A stretch of 5,820 nt of DNA from a virus (lineage: Duplodnaviria; Heunggongvirae; Uroviricota; Caudoviricetes), in the IMG/VR virus record IMGVR_UViG_2778261643_000001, positions 1 through 5,820 of that record; one strand, written 5' to 3'. The position numbers were made by a program, and so were the translations under genes. Every line of letters begins with the position of its first letter. Positions within the stretch are counted from its first letter, which is position 1. Of this stretch, positions 1 through 5,820 are shown piece by piece. The notes below the pieces were generated by a model, which searched no databases, had not been told where the DNA came from, and worked only from the letters and a program-made list of their open reading frames with translations.

Positions 1-392
<392 letters not shown>

Positions 393-393
393 G

Positions 394-416
394 AAAAGCC
401 CGGCGTTCGGGCTTTT
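394..416. terminator. Bidirectional rho-independent terminator between the convergent plus-strand gene and the minus-strand operon
   Basis: Stem GCCCG (398-402) / CGGGC (408-412) with a 5-nt loop, flanked by AAAA (394-397) and TTTT (413-416). Either strand therefore reads a GC stem followed by a U-run. It sits between the stop at 390-392 and the stop of the minus-strand gene at 439-441. Confidence 0.7.
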
Positions 417-438
417 CTGTTATGACGGGTTCAATTTT

Positions 439-1413
439 TTATCCGTTACCGCGCGACGGTTTCTGCGTGATAAACGTCTCAAGCATCTTTTCCGCAATTG
501 CCGACCAGGTGTGACACTGGACCTTTTCAGCATTTTTCACGCGATCAACGCGAGCAATAACCTCATCCCAATCAATCCGCGACTTGATAACCATATGGTT
601 CACCAAAGCCAGGCGATCTGGCGGAAGGCAATCGGGAGGCGTTAATACCAACGCCCCGCACATTGCCGCCTCAAGTACAGTTAATCCAAGGCTTTCGGGA
701 TGCGTAACGATAAACACGTCACTCTTACGCAATTCAGCTGCAAATTCGGTTGCTGGTACCGGCGTCCGTCTGTATGGGGTTACCGATATATTCCCCGGAT
801 CAATGGTAATCAATCCGTCATCGGTCAACGTTCTGGCCTCATACGGAACGGTCAGACGCTGAAGGTTCATAAGGATACTTAAGGAGTGATCAAACCCACT
901 AACATCAAATGCAGCGTGGTCTACAAAAATACGCAGAACATCGTCTGTTTTGGTTTCCAGATGGAACAGATCCTGATTCGCTGCCCATCCAACATGTTTG
1001 TTAAAGCGATTATGACGCTCTAACCTGCCTGGATTATCCAGGTACCGCCAGGTATCATCGCGGACAGTAAAAGTAATATCGACTGGTGCCGAATCCAGCA
1101 TAGAACCGTCGTATACCTGGGCTACCCATCCAGTGAATCGACGACGCAGTTGCACGCCTATTTCCCTGGGCACCGTAGTAAAATACCGCAATCCTGGCGC
1201 TAAAATGGCTTTCGCAGAACACGAGGTCGCAGCGGTCAACACAGCTTCAACATAATCCTCCGGGCTTTCGACGCCGGGGGAATATGGACGATGGTATTGC
1301 AATGTTACCCCTGCCTCACTAAAGGCGCAGGCCAGGTTGTAAGCCCACATTTCCGTATATGTTTTCACATCACTGATAGCTTCAAATTTTCGCCCAATGA
1401 TCAGGATGTTCAT
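439..1413 (-). CDS. dbn: GT-B fold (GT1/GT4-like) glycosyltransferase-like protein, about 324 aa; alternative upstream start at 1437 overlapping the helicase stop
   Basis: Long minus-strand ORF. The ATG at 1413-1411 is preceded by GAGGAAAAG with about 7-8 nt spacing (strong RBS); the ORF-track start at 1437 forms TAATG with the helicase stop. N-terminus MNILIIGRK and C-terminal region SDVFIVTHPESLGLTVLEAAMCGALVLTPPD resemble the conserved E-x7-E region of retaining GT4 glycosyltransferases. The symbol is from my recollection that the gene downstream of ban in P1 is called dbn; it has not been verified by search. Confidence 0.75.
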   Translation of the reverse strand: MNILIIGRKFEAISDVKTYTEMWAYNLACAFSEAGVTLQYHRPYSPGVESPEDYVEAVLTAATSCSAKAILAPGLRYFTTVPREIGVQLRRRFTGWVAQVYDGSMLDSAPVDITFTVRDDTWRYLDNPGRLERHNRFNKHVGWAANQDLFHLETKTDDVLRIFVDHAAFDVSGFDHSLSILMNLQRLTVPYEARTLTDDGLITIDPGNISVTPYRRTPVPATEFAAELRKSDVFIVTHPESLGLTVLEAAMCGALVLTPPDCLPPDRLALVNHMVIKSRIDWDEVIARVDRVKNAEKVQCHTWSAIAEKMLETFITQKPSRGNG

Positions 1414-1436
1414 CGGCTTTTCCTCATTCCATTGCA

Positions 1437-2801
1437 TTAATAATCCTCTTGCCAGTCAGCACCAGCATAGTTATCAAACCGTGAGTATTGGCCGTTAAAA
1501 GCCAATCTCACCGTGCCAATTGGGCCATTTCGTTGCTTTCCGATAATTACCTCGGCAATGCCCTTCATTTCGCTATCCGGGTGATAAACTTCGTCGCGAT
1601 ACAGAAACATGATCAGGTCTGCGTCCTGCTCAATTGCTCCTGATTCACGTAAATCTGAATTTACCGGTCGTTTGTCCGCACGCTGTTCAAGCGATCGATT
1701 AAGTTGTGACAATGCCACCACCGGTACTTGTAATTCCTTCGCCAACGCCTTCAGTGAGCGAGAAATCTCGGCAATTTCCAGCGTTCGGTTATCTTGCAGC
1801 TCGGGGACGCGCATAAGTTGCAGGTAGTCGATCATAATCATGCTCAAACCACCATTTTCTTTATAAACACGACGAGCGCGGGAACGAAGCTCTGTAGGTG
1901 TCAGGGCGCTTGAGTCATCAATAAAAATATTCTGCTTGTCCAACAGAATCCCCATTGCGCCAGAAACCCGCGCCCAATCCTCGTCGTTAAGTTGCCCTGT
2001 TCGAATACGAGTCTGATCAACGCGTGCAAGAGAAGCCAGTGAGCGCATCATCAGCTGGTGGCTCGGCATCTCAAGGCTAAAAACCAATACGGGCTTATCG
2101 TTACGGACTGCGGCATTTTCGACGAGATTCATCGCAAACGTAGTCTTCCCCATCGATGGGCGGGCGGCGACAATAATGAGATCGGACGCCTGAAGTCCTG
2201 CCGTCTTCTTATTGAGATCGGTAAATCCGGTATCAAGCCCCGTTACACCATCATGCGGTCGCTGAAACAACTCTTCTATGCGAGATACCGTTGCATCGAG
2301 AATGCTGGCGATATCTTTTGGACCACTACCGCTCTTTTGTCGTTTTTCAGCTATTTCAAAAACGCGGCGCTCGGCCATATCCAGCAATTCATTGCTGCCC
2401 CTGCCATCCTGCGCATATCCAGCTTCGGCTATTTCATTTGCGACGGAAATCATTTCACGAACAACCGCGCGTTCACGAACGATATCCGCATAAGCACAAA
2501 TATTTGCCGCGCTGGGCGTGTTCTTTGACATCTCCGCAAGGTACGCAAAACCACCGGCGCGTTCTAATTTACCGTTCTGTTCAAGTGCTTCAGCAAGTGT
2601 TATCAAATCAATCGGTTTGCCATGACTTAATAACCTCTCCATCTCACTGAAAATTTCACGATGAGCACTGGTAAAAAAATCATCAGCAACTATACGATCT
2701 GCAACTTCATCCCAGCGGCAGTTATCAAGCATTAAGCCACCAAGTACAGCTTGTTCTGCACTAAGGGAATTTGGCATGGATTCAAGAGGGGATGCAGACA
2801 T
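1437..2801 (-). CDS. ban: DnaB-family replicative DNA helicase, phage P1 Ban-like; likely start at ATG 2801, with an in-frame GTG at 2807
   Basis: The translation aligns by eye along its whole length with E. coli DnaB: SAEQAVLGGLMLDN, AARPSMGKTTFAMNLVENAA (Walker A), LIMIDYLQLM, VPVVALSQLNRSLEQRADKRPVNSDLRESGAIEQDADLIMFLYRDEVYH, IIGKQRNGPIGTVRL. The N-terminus is shorter than host DnaB, as I recall for P1 Ban. GGAG lies 5 nt upstream of the ATG at 2801. The context of three tRNAs, a lipoprotein and a coupled downstream gene argues for a phage paralogue, not chromosomal dnaB. Confidence 0.93.
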   Translation of the reverse strand: MSASPLESMPNSLSAEQAVLGGLMLDNCRWDEVADRIVADDFFTSAHREIFSEMERLLSHGKPIDLITLAEALEQNGKLERAGGFAYLAEMSKNTPSAANICAYADIVRERAVVREMISVANEIAEAGYAQDGRGSNELLDMAERRVFEIAEKRQKSGSGPKDIASILDATVSRIEELFQRPHDGVTGLDTGFTDLNKKTAGLQASDLIIVAARPSMGKTTFAMNLVENAAVRNDKPVLVFSLEMPSHQLMMRSLASLARVDQTRIRTGQLNDEDWARVSGAMGILLDKQNIFIDDSSALTPTELRSRARRVYKENGGLSMIMIDYLQLMRVPELQDNRTLEIAEISRSLKALAKELQVPVVALSQLNRSLEQRADKRPVNSDLRESGAIEQDADLIMFLYRDEVYHPDSEMKGIAEVIIGKQRNGPIGTVRLAFNGQYSRFDNYAGADWQEDY

Positions 2802-3086
2802 TAGCACTCCACCCAGGCGTGCTGAATGTCAGATATAATCGGCATACTCAAATCACTCCTAACGATATGAGTCATCACCAGAAAATCAGGATTAATGCGC
2901 CGGACTCTTCCCGGCTGTCACACCGAATCGCCAGGATGGTGAGTCCCTGAATCCGCTATCCCTCCAACGGTGACTTGCACATTCCGGCTACCTGGTTTGT
3001 TGCCTGAGCTAGGGGAAAAGGCAATCCCTTTAACGTCACCAGACCGCTAACGACGCATGTGCCAGACGCCGTGTTACAACCAAATA

Positions 3087-3162
3087 TGGTGGCCCCTACC
3101 GGACTTGAACCGGTGACCGTGCGATTATGAGTCGCCAGCTCTAACCACTGAGCTAAAGGGCC
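3087..3162 (-). tRNA. tRNA-Ile2-like, anticodon CAU (presumed lysidine-modified, AUA-decoding); tRNA-Met not excluded
   Basis: Minus-strand sequence GGCCCTT-TA-GCTC-AGTGGTTA-GAGC-T-GGCGA-CTCATAA-TCGCA-CGGTC-ACCGG-TTCAAGT-CCGGT-AGGGGCC-A-CCA folds as a 76-nt cloverleaf with encoded CCA. The acceptor and D arms closely resemble E. coli ileX as I recall it. P1 is reported to carry a tRNA-Ile (tentatively trnI). Confidence 0.88.
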
Positions 3163-3189
3163 GGATTACTGCCAATTTTGCTTACGCTT

Positions 3190-4017
3190 TTATTTCACCG
3201 GAACAAACGGAACAGCGGCATTACTGGTCATATACTGCGGTAATGTACCGTTCCATTTGTTGATCGCTTCCAACTCCATAACACCGGGGTTCTGGCGCAG
3301 AGCTTCACCACGTAAACGAATGGCATCAGCTTCGGCCTGGGCTTTTGTGCGAATAGCATCAGCCTGTCCGGCAGCTTCCGCGCGCAGCATGTTGGCCTCT
3401 GCTTCACGTTGTTTGACCTCTTGCTCGCGTTGCAGGGTTTTTTGGTTTGCCGTGACTTTGGCGTTAATACTGTCAATAACTGTTGGCGGGTATTCTGGCT
3501 TACCTACATAAGAGAGGCTCATCACCTGAATGCCGATTGGCGTCATTTCTTCCTGAATGTCTTTAAGGGCTGCATCAAGCAATTCAGATTTGCCACCGTC
3601 GATAAATTTGTCGGTGGTCATTTTGCTGGCTAACCGGTTCAGAGCATCTGCAACCTTCTGGCGTAGATCGGTATCAGTAATATCATCTACACCTTTGCGA
3701 TAGGTCTGAAATACCGTTGTGACTTTTGCTGGATCAACCTTGTAGGCTACGCCGATGTGGTAACCAATGGTTGTTCCGTCGCTCATCTGGAAGCTGAACG
3801 GCTCATCGTATGTCTTCATTTGCTTAAAGGTCGGGAAGATATAAACTTCAGTATTCAAGCCTGTCCAGTAGCGACCAACGCCAACTACTTCACCGATACC
3901 TTTATCATCCCCCAGCTTATTTACTTTGATCCCTACGTTACCTGGCTCTACCCGATCGCATCCGGTCAGGCATAAAGAACCCAAAATAATCGCTGCACTA
4001 ATCAACGTTTTTTTCAT
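3190..4017 (-). CDS. SPFH/Band-7 (stomatin/prohibitin-like) domain lipoprotein with C-terminal coiled-coil, 275 aa
   Basis: N-terminal signal peptide with lipobox (MKKTLISAAIILGSLCLTGC, Cys at the +1 position). The central region reads like an SPFH domain and the C-terminus is an Ala/Glu/Arg/Gln-rich predicted coiled-coil (QREQEVKQREAEANMLRAEAAGQADAIRTKAQAEADAIRLRGEALRQ). RBS AGGA lies about 9 nt before the ATG. It may correspond to the P1 'putative lipoprotein' (plp), but that name is a tentative recollection. Confidence 0.85.
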   Translation of the reverse strand: MKKTLISAAIILGSLCLTGCDRVEPGNVGIKVNKLGDDKGIGEVVGVGRYWTGLNTEVYIFPTFKQMKTYDEPFSFQMSDGTTIGYHIGVAYKVDPAKVTTVFQTYRKGVDDITDTDLRQKVADALNRLASKMTTDKFIDGGKSELLDAALKDIQEEMTPIGIQVMSLSYVGKPEYPPTVIDSINAKVTANQKTLQREQEVKQREAEANMLRAEAAGQADAIRTKAQAEADAIRLRGEALRQNPGVMELEAINKWNGTLPQYMTSNAAVPFVPVK

Positions 4018-4234
4018 TAATTAATTTCCTGGTTTTTTCACGAAAAAAGACTACTGCGAAAGCCGGGTAAATGAGCGCAAGAAGGACTCCCAACAATACA
4101 AGTATTGTGCTGTTAGATGAGATCATATTTGGCAAAAGCCAAACATACAGAACCAGTGACACAATCAAACAGAGGACGGCATAAATATATAACCGCACCC
4201 ATAGCGTTCGACATTTGTTCGGATTGTTCTGCAT
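3998..4234 (-). CDS. Small two-TM inner-membrane protein (78 aa) overlapping the SPFH lipoprotein start by 20 nt; likely co-translated partner
   Basis: Two hydrophobic segments (LYIYAVLCLIVSLVLYVWLL and STILVLLGVLLALIYPAFAVVFF) with a basic C-terminal tail. GGAG lies about 9 nt upstream of the ATG at 4234. The 3' end overlaps the downstream lipoprotein gene. SPFH proteins are commonly encoded with a small membrane partner (NfeD-type), although this protein is too short to carry an NfeD OB-fold. Confidence 0.6.
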   Translation of the reverse strand: MQNNPNKCRTLWVRLYIYAVLCLIVSLVLYVWLLPNMISSNSTILVLLGVLLALIYPAFAVVFFREKTRKLINEKNVD

Positions 4235-4393
4235 CCTCTCACTCCATTATTTAACGAATAAAAAAGCTGCGGTGCCGGGTGCCTCCCGGTGTCCTTTGGC
4301 TGGTTATCCACCGTGGACGGGGAAACAAGGAGAAATGAATGGACTGATATAACCATTTCCCCGCGTGCGCTTAGCCGCATTCACCGCAACGGA

Positions 4394-4453
4394 AAGAGCA
4401 TTCTTGGTGGACCTGTAGATTGGGATATGAACCCGTTACAGGAGAATGCTCTT
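4394..4453. repeat. Nested-hairpin repeat element, copy A: 11-bp outer inverted repeat enclosing the conserved core GTAGATTGGGATATGAACCCGTTACA (4415-4440)
   Basis: Outer arms AAGAGCATTCT (4394-4404) and AGAATGCTCTT (4443-4453) are exact reverse complements. Inside, CCTGTA (4412-4417) pairs with TACAGG (4437-4442), and GGG (4422-4424) pairs with CCC (4432-4434) around a 7-nt loop. The core is 24/26 identical to 5095-5120. Confidence 0.6.
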
Positions 4454-4516
4454 ACCTGTTGCGTACTCCGTTTCATGGAGTTAACGGCGGACTAACCATC
4501 CGCCCCAAATTTATAA

Positions 4517-4930
4517 TTAGCTGCTTGCTGACGGATAGTTTTTGGTTAATTGGACCAAGCGAGCATCAAGAGCTTTTCGATAATCAATCATGCTTCCGAG
4601 CTGAATTTCCAAATCCAACTGCTTGCACTGGTCTATAGTGAGGAATTTATCTGTTCCAATGAATCGAACAAGCTTATTTATGCGCTGGCATAGCTGAGCA
4701 CGTTCGATAATCATTCGCTTGTGGTATTCCTCCAAGCCGTCAATTTTGCCCAACGGAGCTGCTATTTCATTAAATTCACGAAGTGGTATTTTGAGTTCGT
4801 TACCGAACACATCTACAACATCAATTTCAGATGCATCTTCTTTCGAAACTTTATCGACCTGATAACTGGTGCTAACCACTAAAGAAATAACAAACTGCTC
4901 TTTCTGCATAATTACCGTTCTCGCACTCAT
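4517..4930 (-). CDS. Hypothetical protein, 137 aa (130 aa if started at the ATG at 4909); no recognisable family
   Basis: Uninterrupted ORF in a stretch that looks somewhat lower in GC than the helicase region by hand count of a 100-nt sample of each. Neither candidate ATG has a convincing Shine-Dalgarno. It is bracketed by the two near-identical repeat cores at 4415-4440 and 5095-5120. I do not recognise any motif in the protein. Confidence 0.5.
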   Translation of the reverse strand: MSARTVIMQKEQFVISLVVSTSYQVDKVSKEDASEIDVVDVFGNELKIPLREFNEIAAPLGKIDGLEEYHKRMIIERAQLCQRINKLVRFIGTDKFLTIDQCKQLDLEIQLGSMIDYRKALDARLVQLTKNYPSASS

Positions 4931-5047
4931 GGGTGACAGTTTCTAAATAAATTGTGATGGTCGGTGCTGAACTCCGACACAGGGTTGTAGCAAGCCCCGC
5001 AAAGCGCGCACTACTGTAGTTGCGGCACATCAGCCTGTGCATTCACC

Positions 5048-5139
5048 ACAACGTTGAGAACACTGATTGTCACGCTGCAACGCAACATTTATTCGTAGAT
5101 TGGGATATGACCCCGTTACGCCAGTGTTCTCAACGTTGT
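5048..5139. repeat. Nested-hairpin repeat element, copy B: perfect 18-bp inverted repeat (5048-5065 / 5122-5139) enclosing a 56-nt spacer with core GTAGATTGGGATATGACCCCGTTACG (5095-5120)
   Basis: ACAACGTTGAGAACACTG and CAGTGTTCTCAACGTTGT are exact reverse complements. Inside, CGTA (5094-5097) pairs with TACG (5117-5120). Compared with copy A the closing pair changes T:A to C:G, a compensatory change, while the 22-nt interior stays almost identical. Confidence 0.6.
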
Positions 5140-5285
5140 AGTGCCGGTTACGGTTCCGGCCAGGCCTCTTCCTCAACGGGGTGTTCTCCATACGGACTAC
5201 CGTTTATTGGTCGTTCCTGCGGTTTATGTTGTGAAGCCAGATGCTTATCTTCTGGTTGCTTCTAAGAGCTGCACTTCATCACAAC

Positions 5286-5359
5286 GGTAAGGGTACTTCG
5301 TAGGGATTCGAACCCTCTGCCAAGCACGGCGATCTCCGACGTCGCAAAATACCCTTACC
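5286..5359 (-). pseudogene. tRNA-like pseudo-element: a canonical T-arm (GGGTTCGAATCCC) inside a perfect 10-bp terminal inverted repeat (GGTAAGGGTA / TACCCTTACC); not a foldable canonical tRNA
   Basis: The minus strand reads GGTAAGGGTA...GCAGAGGGTTCGAATCCCTACGAAGTACCCTTACC. The 10-bp terminal helix and the T-arm are clear, but I cannot place a D-arm or anticodon arm at canonical distances, and there is no encoded CCA. It lies 8 nt downstream (in transcription order) of tRNA-Thr. Confidence 0.4.
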
Positions 5360-5367
5360 TGTTGTGT

Positions 5368-5443
5368 TGGTGCCGGTTAACGGACTCGAACCGCTGACAT
5401 CCTGCTTACAAGGCAGGCGCTCTACCAACTGAGCTAAACCGGC
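5368..5443 (-). tRNA. tRNA-Thr, anticodon UGU
   Basis: Minus-strand sequence GCCGGTT-TA-GCTC-AGTTGGTA-GAGC-G-CCTGC-CTTGTAA-GCAGG-ATGTC-AGCGG-TTCGAGT-CCGTT-AACCGGC-A-CCA folds as a 76-nt cloverleaf with a 7-bp acceptor stem and encoded CCA. P1 is reported to carry a tRNA-Thr. Confidence 0.9.
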
Positions 5444-5445
5444 AT

Positions 5446-5521
5446 TGGCGATGGTGGATGGATTTGAACCATCGACCCGTTGATTAACAGTCAACCGCTC
5501 TAACCGCTGAGCTACACCATC
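5446..5521 (-). tRNA. tRNA-Asn, anticodon GUU; sequence unlike host tRNA-Asn
   Basis: Minus-strand sequence GATGGTG-TA-GCTC-AGCGGTTA-GAGC-G-GTTGA-CTGTTAA-TCAAC-GGGTC-GATGG-TTCAAAT-CCATC-CACCATC-G-CCA folds as a 76-nt cloverleaf with a perfect acceptor stem and anticodon stem. Only 2 nt separate it from tRNA-Thr. P1 is reported to carry a tRNA-Asn. Confidence 0.85.
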
Positions 5522-5650
5522 ACTTGCCGGGTACGTCTCCGGCGAGGGCTTCCACCTCCGTATGCTTTTCGGCGCACCGCGCCCTGGCTGCAATTCGGTA
5601 ACAGGGGATGCATAACCCTGGCTTCCAGCGTGATTAGCGCCTTCAGCATG

Positions 5651-5665
5651 ACGGGATATACCCGT
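5651..5665. other. Short palindromic hairpin ACGGG-ATATA-CCCGT, related to the GGGATAT..CCCGT core of the repeat family
   Basis: 5-bp stem ACGGG/CCCGT with an ATATA loop. It shares GGGATAT and CCCGT with the cores at 4421-4436 and 5101-5116. It lies about 130 bp upstream (in transcription order) of tRNA-Asn. Confidence 0.4.
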
Positions 5666-5682
5666 AGCAAGACGTTATTCCT

Positions 5683-5703
5683 AAATTGCTAAAAGCAATT
5701 GCT
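5683..5703. promoter_or_regulatory. Candidate repressor operator (P1 C1-type?) with palindrome ATTGCT-AAA-AGCAAT and an overlapping third ATTGCT; probably overlaps the promoter of the tRNA-ban operon
   Basis: Minus-strand reading ATTGCTTTTAGCAATTT matches about 13/17 positions of the P1 C1 operator consensus as I recall it (ATTGCTCTAATAAATTT). It sits in the about 300-bp non-coding region upstream of the first minus-strand gene. No comparable site lies directly upstream of the helicase gene (2802-3086). The -35 and -10 elements could not be placed confidently. Confidence 0.3.
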
Positions 5704-5820
5704 GTTACGCCGAATGAAAAAGGACGTAACAGGTAAGGACGCTGACCAAAAAGATGGCCCTGGATTTGCCCCTATATTTCCAGACATCTGTTATCACTTA
5801 ACCCATTACAGGCCCGCTGC

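Follow-up and report, generated by a model that had tools for sequence, protein, structure and literature searches.

A GT4-like glycosyltransferase gene beside the ban helicase gene of a P1-like phage-plasmid, and its putative partnership with pmgO, pmgP and pmgQ

Why should a glycosyltransferase-like gene lie directly downstream of the gene for a replicative helicase? The question is raised by a 5,820-nucleotide stretch of viral DNA (IMG/VR record IMGVR_UViG_2778261643_000001, positions 1 to 5,820; hereafter the window), in which the stop codon of a DnaB-type helicase gene overlaps a start codon of the next reading frame on the minus strand. A first-pass annotation of the sequence had called this placement in a replication operon unexpected, and had proposed that the downstream protein is a GT4-type sugar transferase acting either on phage DNA or on host surface polysaccharide. 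We identify the downstream gene as dbn of phage P1 and its relatives. It is highly probable that Dbn is a GT-B enzyme belonging to a set of four enzymes, the other three being PmgO, PmgP and PmgQ, while the adjacency of ban and dbn is a rearrangement specific to the P1 lineage and has no functional link behind it.

Megablast comparison with phage records identifies the source of the window as a P1-like phage-plasmid: it is 98.5% identical to RCS47 (Escherichia phage) over 90% of its length, and about 97% identical to P1, P7, SJ46 and other Punavirus genomes. The two genes at issue are as follows.

439-1437, minus strand: dbn open reading frame as annotated in P1 and RCS47, 332 amino acids from the ATG of TAATG (open reading frame list; PHROG 2518)
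1437-2807, minus strand: ban, DnaB-type replicative helicase, upstream in the operon (Pfam DnaB_C 1e-107, DnaB 1e-34; Ban in P1)

The assignment of the first of these as dbn, the gene that follows ban in P1 and its relatives, is based on the 97-99% amino acid identity and equal length of its product to Dbn of P1, RCS47 and SJ46, and on neighbours (gene 5, ban and tRNAs) that are the same genes as in P1, P7, RCS47 and SJ46, with dbn between ban and tail gene 5. Dbn of P1 (GenBank AAQ14048), Glt of P7 and Dbn of RCS47 represent the same gene at the same position and with the same TAATG junction, the window copy differing from them by allelic differences only. The GC content of dbn (49%) is no different from that of the neighbouring genes and gives no sign of recent import. 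The gene is thus already known. The P1 record lists dbn ('downstream of ban') as 'function unknown, possible glycosyltransferase', the P7 record lists glt as 'putative glycosyltransferase', the RCS47 record has 'putative glycosyltransferase, Dbn', and the RefSeq name is 'glycosyltransferase family 4 protein'; the glycosyltransferase annotation has been public since 2004. PHROG 2518 covers Dbn residues 1-332 (1e-239) and carries no assigned function, and NCBIfam gives no useful match to Dbn. In the searchable literature, we found no functional study of dbn, of pmgO, pmgP or pmgQ, or of WaaZ or MptE-like proteins in connection with phage.

Dbn is an acidic protein (pI 5.7) without a membrane segment. 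An AlphaFold2 model built with 18 homologues (pLDDT 89.5, pTM 0.86) consists of two Rossmann-like halves, and Foldseek matches it in the PDB, with probability 1.0, to sucrose-phosphate synthase, GlgM, PimB' and BshA. Further GT4 matches at this probability include a Bacillus anthracis GT4 enzyme as well as lipopolysaccharide (LPS) and O-glycan transferases. The two sequence motifs to which the first-pass annotation had drawn attention are both present.

1393-1413, minus strand: MNILIIG, first beta-strand of the N-terminal Rossmann domain (translation; AlphaFold2 strand at residues 10-14)
670-696, minus strand: ESLGLTVLE, that is E248-x7-E256, in the C-terminal Rossmann domain, at the nucleotide-sugar site of GT4-type enzymes (translation)

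Conservation was assessed in an alignment of 126 full-length representatives at 50% identity (127 sequences including Dbn), which diverge to about 25% identity. E248 is conserved in 99% and E256 in 100% of the sequences, H246 in 99%, and G251 and G261 in 98-99%, and the E-x7-E pair is intact in all but four of the 126 representatives (122/126). D173-H174 at the start of the C-terminal domain (99-100%) and G150-W-A-A are further invariant features, and these set the Dbn family apart from other GT4 enzymes. Thus, the two features on which the earlier GT4-type assignment hinged are both present, the GT-B fold in the model of Dbn and the catalytic acidic residues across the family.

The relationship to GT4 is nevertheless a distant one. 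Compared with PimA/PimB', BshA, WaaG, WaaB, WbnH and sucrose-phosphate synthase, Dbn is only 10-15% identical and about 50-80 residues shorter. A word-indexed protein search retrieved only 23 clusters, whereas an exhaustive profile search of 1.84 billion representatives retrieved 377 Dbn-family clusters (50% identity) at E values up to 0.001; in this hidden Markov model (HMM) search, the family is compact, with proteins of about 310 residues, and does not merge into the bulk of GT4. The Pfam profile Glycos_transf_1 (PF00534) scores 25.1 bits on residues 229-315 of Dbn (E 1.5e-5), below its gathering cut-off of 26.4, and several family members (e.g. P0099 and P0151) pass that cut-off. Dbn is, therefore, a borderline and divergent GT4 member. 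Very probably it is a soluble cytoplasmic GT-B glycosyltransferase of GT4-like type, and a retaining mechanism is presumed because its nearest structural neighbours are all retaining GT4/GT5 enzymes. Distant family members are fused to a methyltransferase or to a second GT4 domain, an arrangement that fits polysaccharide enzymes and does not by itself identify the acceptor.

A different reading of the same features is that Dbn is a dead or non-transferase relic, with the GT-B fold retained as a binding protein or a sugar-nucleotide hydrolase. The Pfam score, the lack of any phenotype found and the family's D173-H174 at the start of the C-terminal domain could be taken in its favour; in many GT4 enzymes, the corresponding positions are occupied by a glycine-rich N-terminal loop and a basic motif. 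However, dbn is under strong purifying selection: 79 of the 80 P1-like viral contigs have an intact copy, and pN/pS is about 0.14 relative to the window copy. This, the invariance of E-x7-E, H246 and G251/G261 in so divergent a family, and the conserved pairing with other transferases (see below) make a relic very improbable.

The pairing becomes apparent outside the P1 lineage. Five non-P1 phage contigs carry a Dbn homologue with no adjacent helicase gene, flanked instead by small genes without a strong Pfam match: three metagenomic contigs (two of which, L009 and L011, have lambda-type terminase and portal genes), the E. coli phage EP_H11 (L012) and L184. By BLAST and then by an HMM survey of open reading frames, the flanking genes proved to be homologues of P1 PmgO, PmgP and PmgQ. 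The order PmgO-PmgP-Dbn-PmgQ is contiguous in L011, L012 and L184 (the last with two PmgP-like genes; the PmgP homologue of EP_H11 is an unannotated frame), it is kept in L009 with one extra gene between PmgP and Dbn, and it is permuted to PmgP-Dbn-PmgQ-PmgO in L005. P1 and RCS47 have the set in two parts, with dbn directly after ban and pmgN-pmgO-pmgP-ppp-pmgQ about 6 kb away, beyond the oppositely oriented tail operon 5-6-24-7-25-26. The window therefore holds dbn only, its partners being located at 37022-39580 of RCS47 (L016) and 79592-82150 of P1 (AF234172). The set is also split in Citrobacter-type phage-plasmids (95 kb; L004 and L010), and a Citrobacter rodentium prophage (L185, 7001-8785) has PmgO-PmgP-PmgQ without Dbn, between the lysis genes and the terminase. 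Dbn thus appears to be the optional fourth component of a cassette that is otherwise conserved.

A more remote relative occurs in the jumbo Stenotrophomonas phage RAS14 (L013, 5590-7248; also in CM1), where residues 140-330, approximately, of a 552-residue protein are Dbn-like (27% identity, HMM 1e-44). A PmgQ-like gene lies about 12 kb off in RAS14/CM1, so that the set is dispersed in these Xanthomonadaceae jumbo phages as well.

It should be noted that the family is rare in cellular genomes, a scan of one genome per species yielding 3 loci only. Two IMG/VR scans, the second with an alignment of distant members, each yielded 80 loci, almost all P1-like, which were used only for the junction and selection analyses.

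All three partners resemble glycosyltransferases. PmgO matches PHROG 4603 ('alpha-2,3-sialyltransferase') and, weakly, Pfam MptE-like, and PmgP also has a weak MptE-like match. Precomputed MptE-like matches exist for many PmgO homologues, one of which matches WaaZ_KDO_III too. Profile comparison shows PmgO and PmgP to be paralogous (hhalign 97.5%, E 6e-12), and we regard both as MptE-like, with the Maf/WaaZ/sialyltransferase type of fold. The donor substrates of glycosyltransferases with this fold are CMP-activated ulosonic acids, namely pseudaminic acid, legionaminic acid, sialic acid and Kdo. PmgQ matches PHROG 1962 ('glycosyltransferase'), has an invariant D-x-D motif, and is already named 'glycosyltransferase' for P1 in RefSeq; its profile matches GT8 enzymes in the PDB (Skp1 alpha-galactosyltransferase 1e-5, glycogenin 3e-3). 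In P1 the three genes are labelled 'putative morphogenetic function'. P1 would therefore encode four putative glycosyltransferases, i.e. Dbn, PmgO, PmgP and PmgQ. Their grouping as a portable cassette related to WaaZ-containing polysaccharide loci appears to be new: it is stated nowhere in the searchable literature, a coverage that does not extend to the P1 genome paper (Lobocka et al. 2004).

If Dbn belongs with these proteins, what does its overlap with ban signify? One answer would be a replication-linked role, in which Dbn modifies or assists the Ban helicase or the replisome, thereby explaining the overlapping codons. The relevant features of the junction are listed here.

1435-1439, minus strand: TAATG, stop codon of ban overlapping the first in-frame ATG of dbn (read from the sequence)
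1422-1425, minus strand: GAGG, Shine-Dalgarno site 8 nucleotides before the second ATG (read from the sequence)
439-1413, minus strand: coding sequence of dbn when read from its probable true start, 324 amino acids, MNILIIG..., predicted soluble GT-B glycosyltransferase

The junction reads gattatTAATGcaatggaatGAGGaaaagccgATGaac on the minus strand, with the ban stop TAA at 1439-1437, the overlapping ATG at 1437-1435 and a second in-frame ATG at 1413-1411, 24 nucleotides downstream of the first, all as described in the first-pass annotation. The TAATG form is found in 70 of the 80 P1-like contigs, and two others have TGATG; the TAATG count, along with the operon that ban and dbn share, speaks for a replication role. 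The remaining 8 contigs have neither such an overlap nor the first ATG. Furthermore, 12 of 16 non-P1 homologues start exactly at the alignment column of the second Met. In the four variant contigs that were inspected out of the eight, ban and dbn are about 300 bp apart, and the dbn start ATGAACATC is preceded by an AAGGAG site. Given the homologue starts and the P1-like contigs that lack the first ATG, the real product is almost certainly the predicted 324-residue protein that begins with MNILIIG at the second ATG. The TAATG overlap is real in the window, yet it is not what couples ban and dbn. The adjacency itself is confined to the P1 lineage; at the other loci examined, the homologue stands beside glycosyltransferase genes and never beside a helicase gene, and both ban and dbn are dispensable. 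A replication-linked role is hence barely plausible, the least probable of the explanations considered here.

The variant contigs are among L090-L098, and those inspected are L090, L091, L094 and L097 (approximately 5700-6000). Read by eye, the insert of about 300 bp appears to hold a small open frame, its stop codon sharing an ATGA with the start codon of dbn.

Co-expression of the two genes, also part of the earlier claim, holds in another form. The TAATG start is probably unused, and ban and dbn are very likely co-transcribed, since only 24 nucleotides separate the ban stop from the used start, both genes share the C1-controlled promoter Pban according to the P1 annotation, and a hairpin follows dbn.

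392-419: hairpin with an 11-bp GC-rich stem flanked by A and U runs, between the convergent gene 5 and dbn (RNA fold)
21-392, plus strand: 3' end of baseplate gene 5, convergent with dbn

The hairpin folds at -17.6 kcal/mol (z -4.6), and none of 200 shuffled sequences folds equally well, so that it is a probable bidirectional terminator ending the ban-dbn operon. A simple terminator scan missed it, maybe because the T run pairs into the stem. As to an internal dbn promoter, one sigma-70-like match lies inside ban (2074-2047), at the position calculated for the predicted P2dbn of P1; this single match compares with 3.9 expected in shuffled sequences and is not evidence.

In the P1 annotation, ban-dbn is placed behind the bivalent C1 operator Oban, and pmgN-Q behind the C1 operator Oppp and a predicted sigma-70 promoter; the P7 annotation has the same operator arrangement for both operons. 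From the C1 operators before each, both operons are read as off in the lysogen and on in lytic growth, a reading that rests on annotation.

None of the four genes is needed for plaque formation. In P1, dbn, pmgO, pmgP, ppp and pmgQ were non-essential by CRISPRi (PMC10695390), and phages with an in-frame deletion of dbn, pmgO, pmgP, pmgQ, ppp or pap plate normally in every case (Gonzales et al., PMC9024508); dbn is therefore dispensable in the laboratory. When grown on a restriction-less host, the same deletion phages have a parental efficiency of plating on EcoA, EcoB and EcoK strains, type I systems being the only ones covered (PMC9024508, Table S3 and Fig S1).

The restriction data bear on the possibility that Dbn glycosylates DNA in the manner of the T4 alpha- and beta-glucosyltransferases and so evades restriction, which was one of the two functions put forward in the first-pass annotation. 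On the type I hosts, the dbn deletion phage was restricted like its parent, and deletions of pmgO, pmgP and pmgQ likewise left plating efficiency at the parental level. The known cases of DNA glycosylation need a hydroxylated base (5hmC, 5hoC or 5hmU) supplied by a hydroxymethylase, a flavin hydroxylase or a TET-like oxygenase. No such enzyme is annotated in RCS47, in the parts of P1 that were read or in the 8-kb flanks of the other Dbn loci, as judged from the annotation and not from a profile search of every P1 protein. In structure, moreover, Dbn is closer to cellular GT4 enzymes than to the T4 alpha-glucosyltransferase (GT72), the T4 beta-glucosyltransferase (GT63) falls outside the top 60 matches, and the acidic pI of Dbn points the same way. 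We therefore consider DNA glycosylation very unlikely.

Cellular relatives of Dbn point to polysaccharide synthesis instead. On a Colwellia contig (L006), the Dbn homologue follows an MptE-like/WaaZ_KDO_III protein amid KpsM/KpsT-type ABC transporter genes, a Poly_export protein and another glycosyltransferase. On chromosome 3 of Brucella pseudogrignonensis (L100), the gene order is Wzz-like, ABC-2 permease, ABC ATPase, a 734-residue GT4 protein, GT4-like, MptE-like and then the Dbn homologue. An MptE/WaaZ-like gene is immediately upstream of the Dbn homologue in L180 and L181-183 also. An HMM of these WaaZ-like neighbours recovers E. coli K-12 WaaZ at 4e-18, and the Brucella protein, which was outside the HMM build, at 2e-72. 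These loci indicate that the Dbn family has long been associated with an enzyme of the WaaZ type in the synthesis of ABC-transporter-dependent polysaccharides.

The E. coli waa enzymes offer a parallel, since the phage set combines the same three families: WaaZ for Kdo III, WaaJ and WaaO of GT8, and WaaG and WaaB of GT4. When the phage profiles are run against the 14 K-12 waa-locus proteins, the best matches are WaaZ for PmgO and PmgP (9-10 bits, weak), WaaJ (6e-6) and also WaaO for PmgQ, and WaaG for Dbn (4e-3, weak). Similarity between the two sets is marginal (5-16 bits), and the phage set lacks the heptosyltransferase and kinase partners. A second comparison is with the Gtr seroconversion systems (GtrA flippase, GtrB of GT2 and a GtrC-type membrane transferase), which are likewise accessory genes of temperate phages proposed to alter host surface glycans. 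The phage set described here differs from them in folds and topology and in having no flippase, and its genes are C1-repressed and not known to be expressed in lysogens. Dbn, PmgO, PmgP and PmgQ have no Gtr protein match in Pfam or PHROG, and the proteins of the window have no Gtr-like Pfam match.

An envelope acceptor is the best supported, because the cellular homologues belong to polysaccharide gene clusters and the phage enzymes fall into the same families as those of the LPS core. The host surface polysaccharide option of the first-pass annotation is accordingly our best guess, and an envelope glycolipid as the acceptor of Dbn is a tentative proposal that may well prove wrong.

A protein acceptor is a less likely alternative, which we rate as rather improbable. 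Here the set would decorate a virion or host protein by O-glycosylation, with a Maf-like ulosonic-acid transferase starting the glycan and Dbn extending it. Such a role is favoured by the match of PmgO to Maf and by the place of the genes in the late region of lambdoid prophages. Yet the P1 virion-proteome paper does not mention dbn, pmgO, pmgP or pmgQ in its main text, no glycosylated P1 protein is reported in the searchable papers, and deletion of any of the four genes leaves plaques normal (PMC9024508). The cellular Dbn homologues, too, are in polysaccharide export loci and not beside protein substrates.

On balance, we lean towards an accessory set of four enzymes that would build a glycan on a non-DNA acceptor, probably an envelope glycolipid. 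In this scheme, dbn would be transcribed with ban from the C1-repressed ban promoter, transcription ending at the hairpin at 392-419, and PmgO, PmgP and PmgQ would be supplied as partners of Dbn by the second C1-controlled operon about 6 kb away. No sugar-nucleotide synthesis gene was seen beside the cassette in the loci examined, and the enzymes may use host nucleotide sugars (CMP-Kdo and UDP-hexoses in E. coli). They would build a short oligosaccharide, to which Dbn would add one optional sugar, on an acceptor that is most probably a lipid-linked envelope glycan such as Kdo/inner-core LPS. The outcome would be an accessory remodelling of the envelope that plays no role in plaque formation. 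For an accessory function of this kind, single deletions are expected to have no plaque phenotype, and the function would hence have been overlooked. The LPS core is the site to which P1 adsorbs, and its outer part is truncated when waaZ is overexpressed.

Several points weigh against this scheme. The glycosyltransferase activity, donor and acceptor of Dbn are predictions from sequence and a structural model; its biological role, like the donor and acceptor, is something we infer. The Glycos_transf_1 score of Dbn is just under the curated cut-off, the sequence link of PmgO and PmgP to WaaZ is weak (9-10 bits; hhalign 59%), and the cassette synteny is drawn from about 10 independent loci. Maf, the top structural match of PmgO, glycosylates protein and not lipid. 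C1 repression in P1 and the lysis-terminase position in lambdoid prophages fit lysogenic LPS conversion poorly, unless internal promoters act, and LPS made late in the lytic cycle could alter the cell surface only partly.

The rest of the window belongs to the upstream part of the operon and resembles RCS47. Upstream of ban there are, in order, a tRNA gene, a gene for an SPFH lipoprotein, a gene for a small membrane protein, a crAss001_48-like reading frame and two tRNA genes; the window is here of the RCS47 type, with the SPFH lipoprotein in place of tciABC. Links of dbn with the operon's tRNA genes or with its dmt gene were considered and found no support.

The SPFH/Band-7 lipoprotein (3190-4017, minus strand; Pfam 1e-30) has a signal peptide ending in LTGC, and the label 'putative serine protease' that it bears in RCS47 is not supported by this domain match. 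A 78-residue membrane protein is encoded at 3998-4234 (minus strand), overlapping and preceding the SPFH gene, and the two genes together replace tciA-tciB-tciC of P1. The 137-codon frame at 4517-4930 (minus strand) belongs to the crAss001_48 family (Pfam PF21825 3e-15, PHROG 15270 1e-94) and has a low GC content of 41%; by coordinate offset, the RCS47 record places Upl and Plp on the opposite strand over roughly the same interval.

The tRNA gene at 3087-3162 (minus strand) is called 'Met' by ARAGORN (anticodon CAT) and is tRNA-Met in RCS47, while the P1 record has tRNA-Ile2 (CAT, Ile after lysidine modification). The tRNA-Thr(TGT) and tRNA-Asn(GTT) genes at 5368-5521 agree with P1. Short repeat blocks are present at 4377-4464, 5039-5143 and 5272-5367, with the units GCATTCACCNCAACG..., GTAGATTGGGATATGAMCCCGTTAC and AATNCYCTTACCTGTTG; one of these blocks occurs three times and each of the others twice. 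A 22-nucleotide inverted repeat joins 5044-5065 and 5122-5143, and the middle block resembles a tRNA T-arm on the minus strand (GGGTTCATATCCC). The blocks could be degenerate tRNA-like elements beside the real tRNA genes; neither ARAGORN nor Rfam (gathering score) makes a call on them.

P1 is widely used in genetics, yet about one third of its genes have no function, and our analysis adds a testable grouping, that of dbn with pmgO, pmgP and pmgQ. Taken to its full extent, the proposal is speculative: P1, many lambdoid prophages and phage-plasmids of Gram-negatives would share an unrecognised portable cassette, composed of the Maf/WaaZ-like ulosonic-acid transferases PmgO and PmgP, the GT8-like PmgQ and an optional GT4-like Dbn, which during lytic growth would make a Kdo-containing oligosaccharide solely from host nucleotide sugars such as CMP-Kdo, either on the inner core of LPS or on a protein of phage or host. 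If true, it would represent a novel type of envelope or virion glycosylation directed by phage, and would provide a function for four P1 genes now listed as 'putative morphogenetic' or unknown. If the cassette remodels the LPS core, the receptor of P1 and many coliphages, or glycosylates virions, it would bear on superinfection exclusion and on host range in phage therapy, as well as on the behaviour of the P1-like plasmids that spread resistance genes in Enterobacteriaceae.

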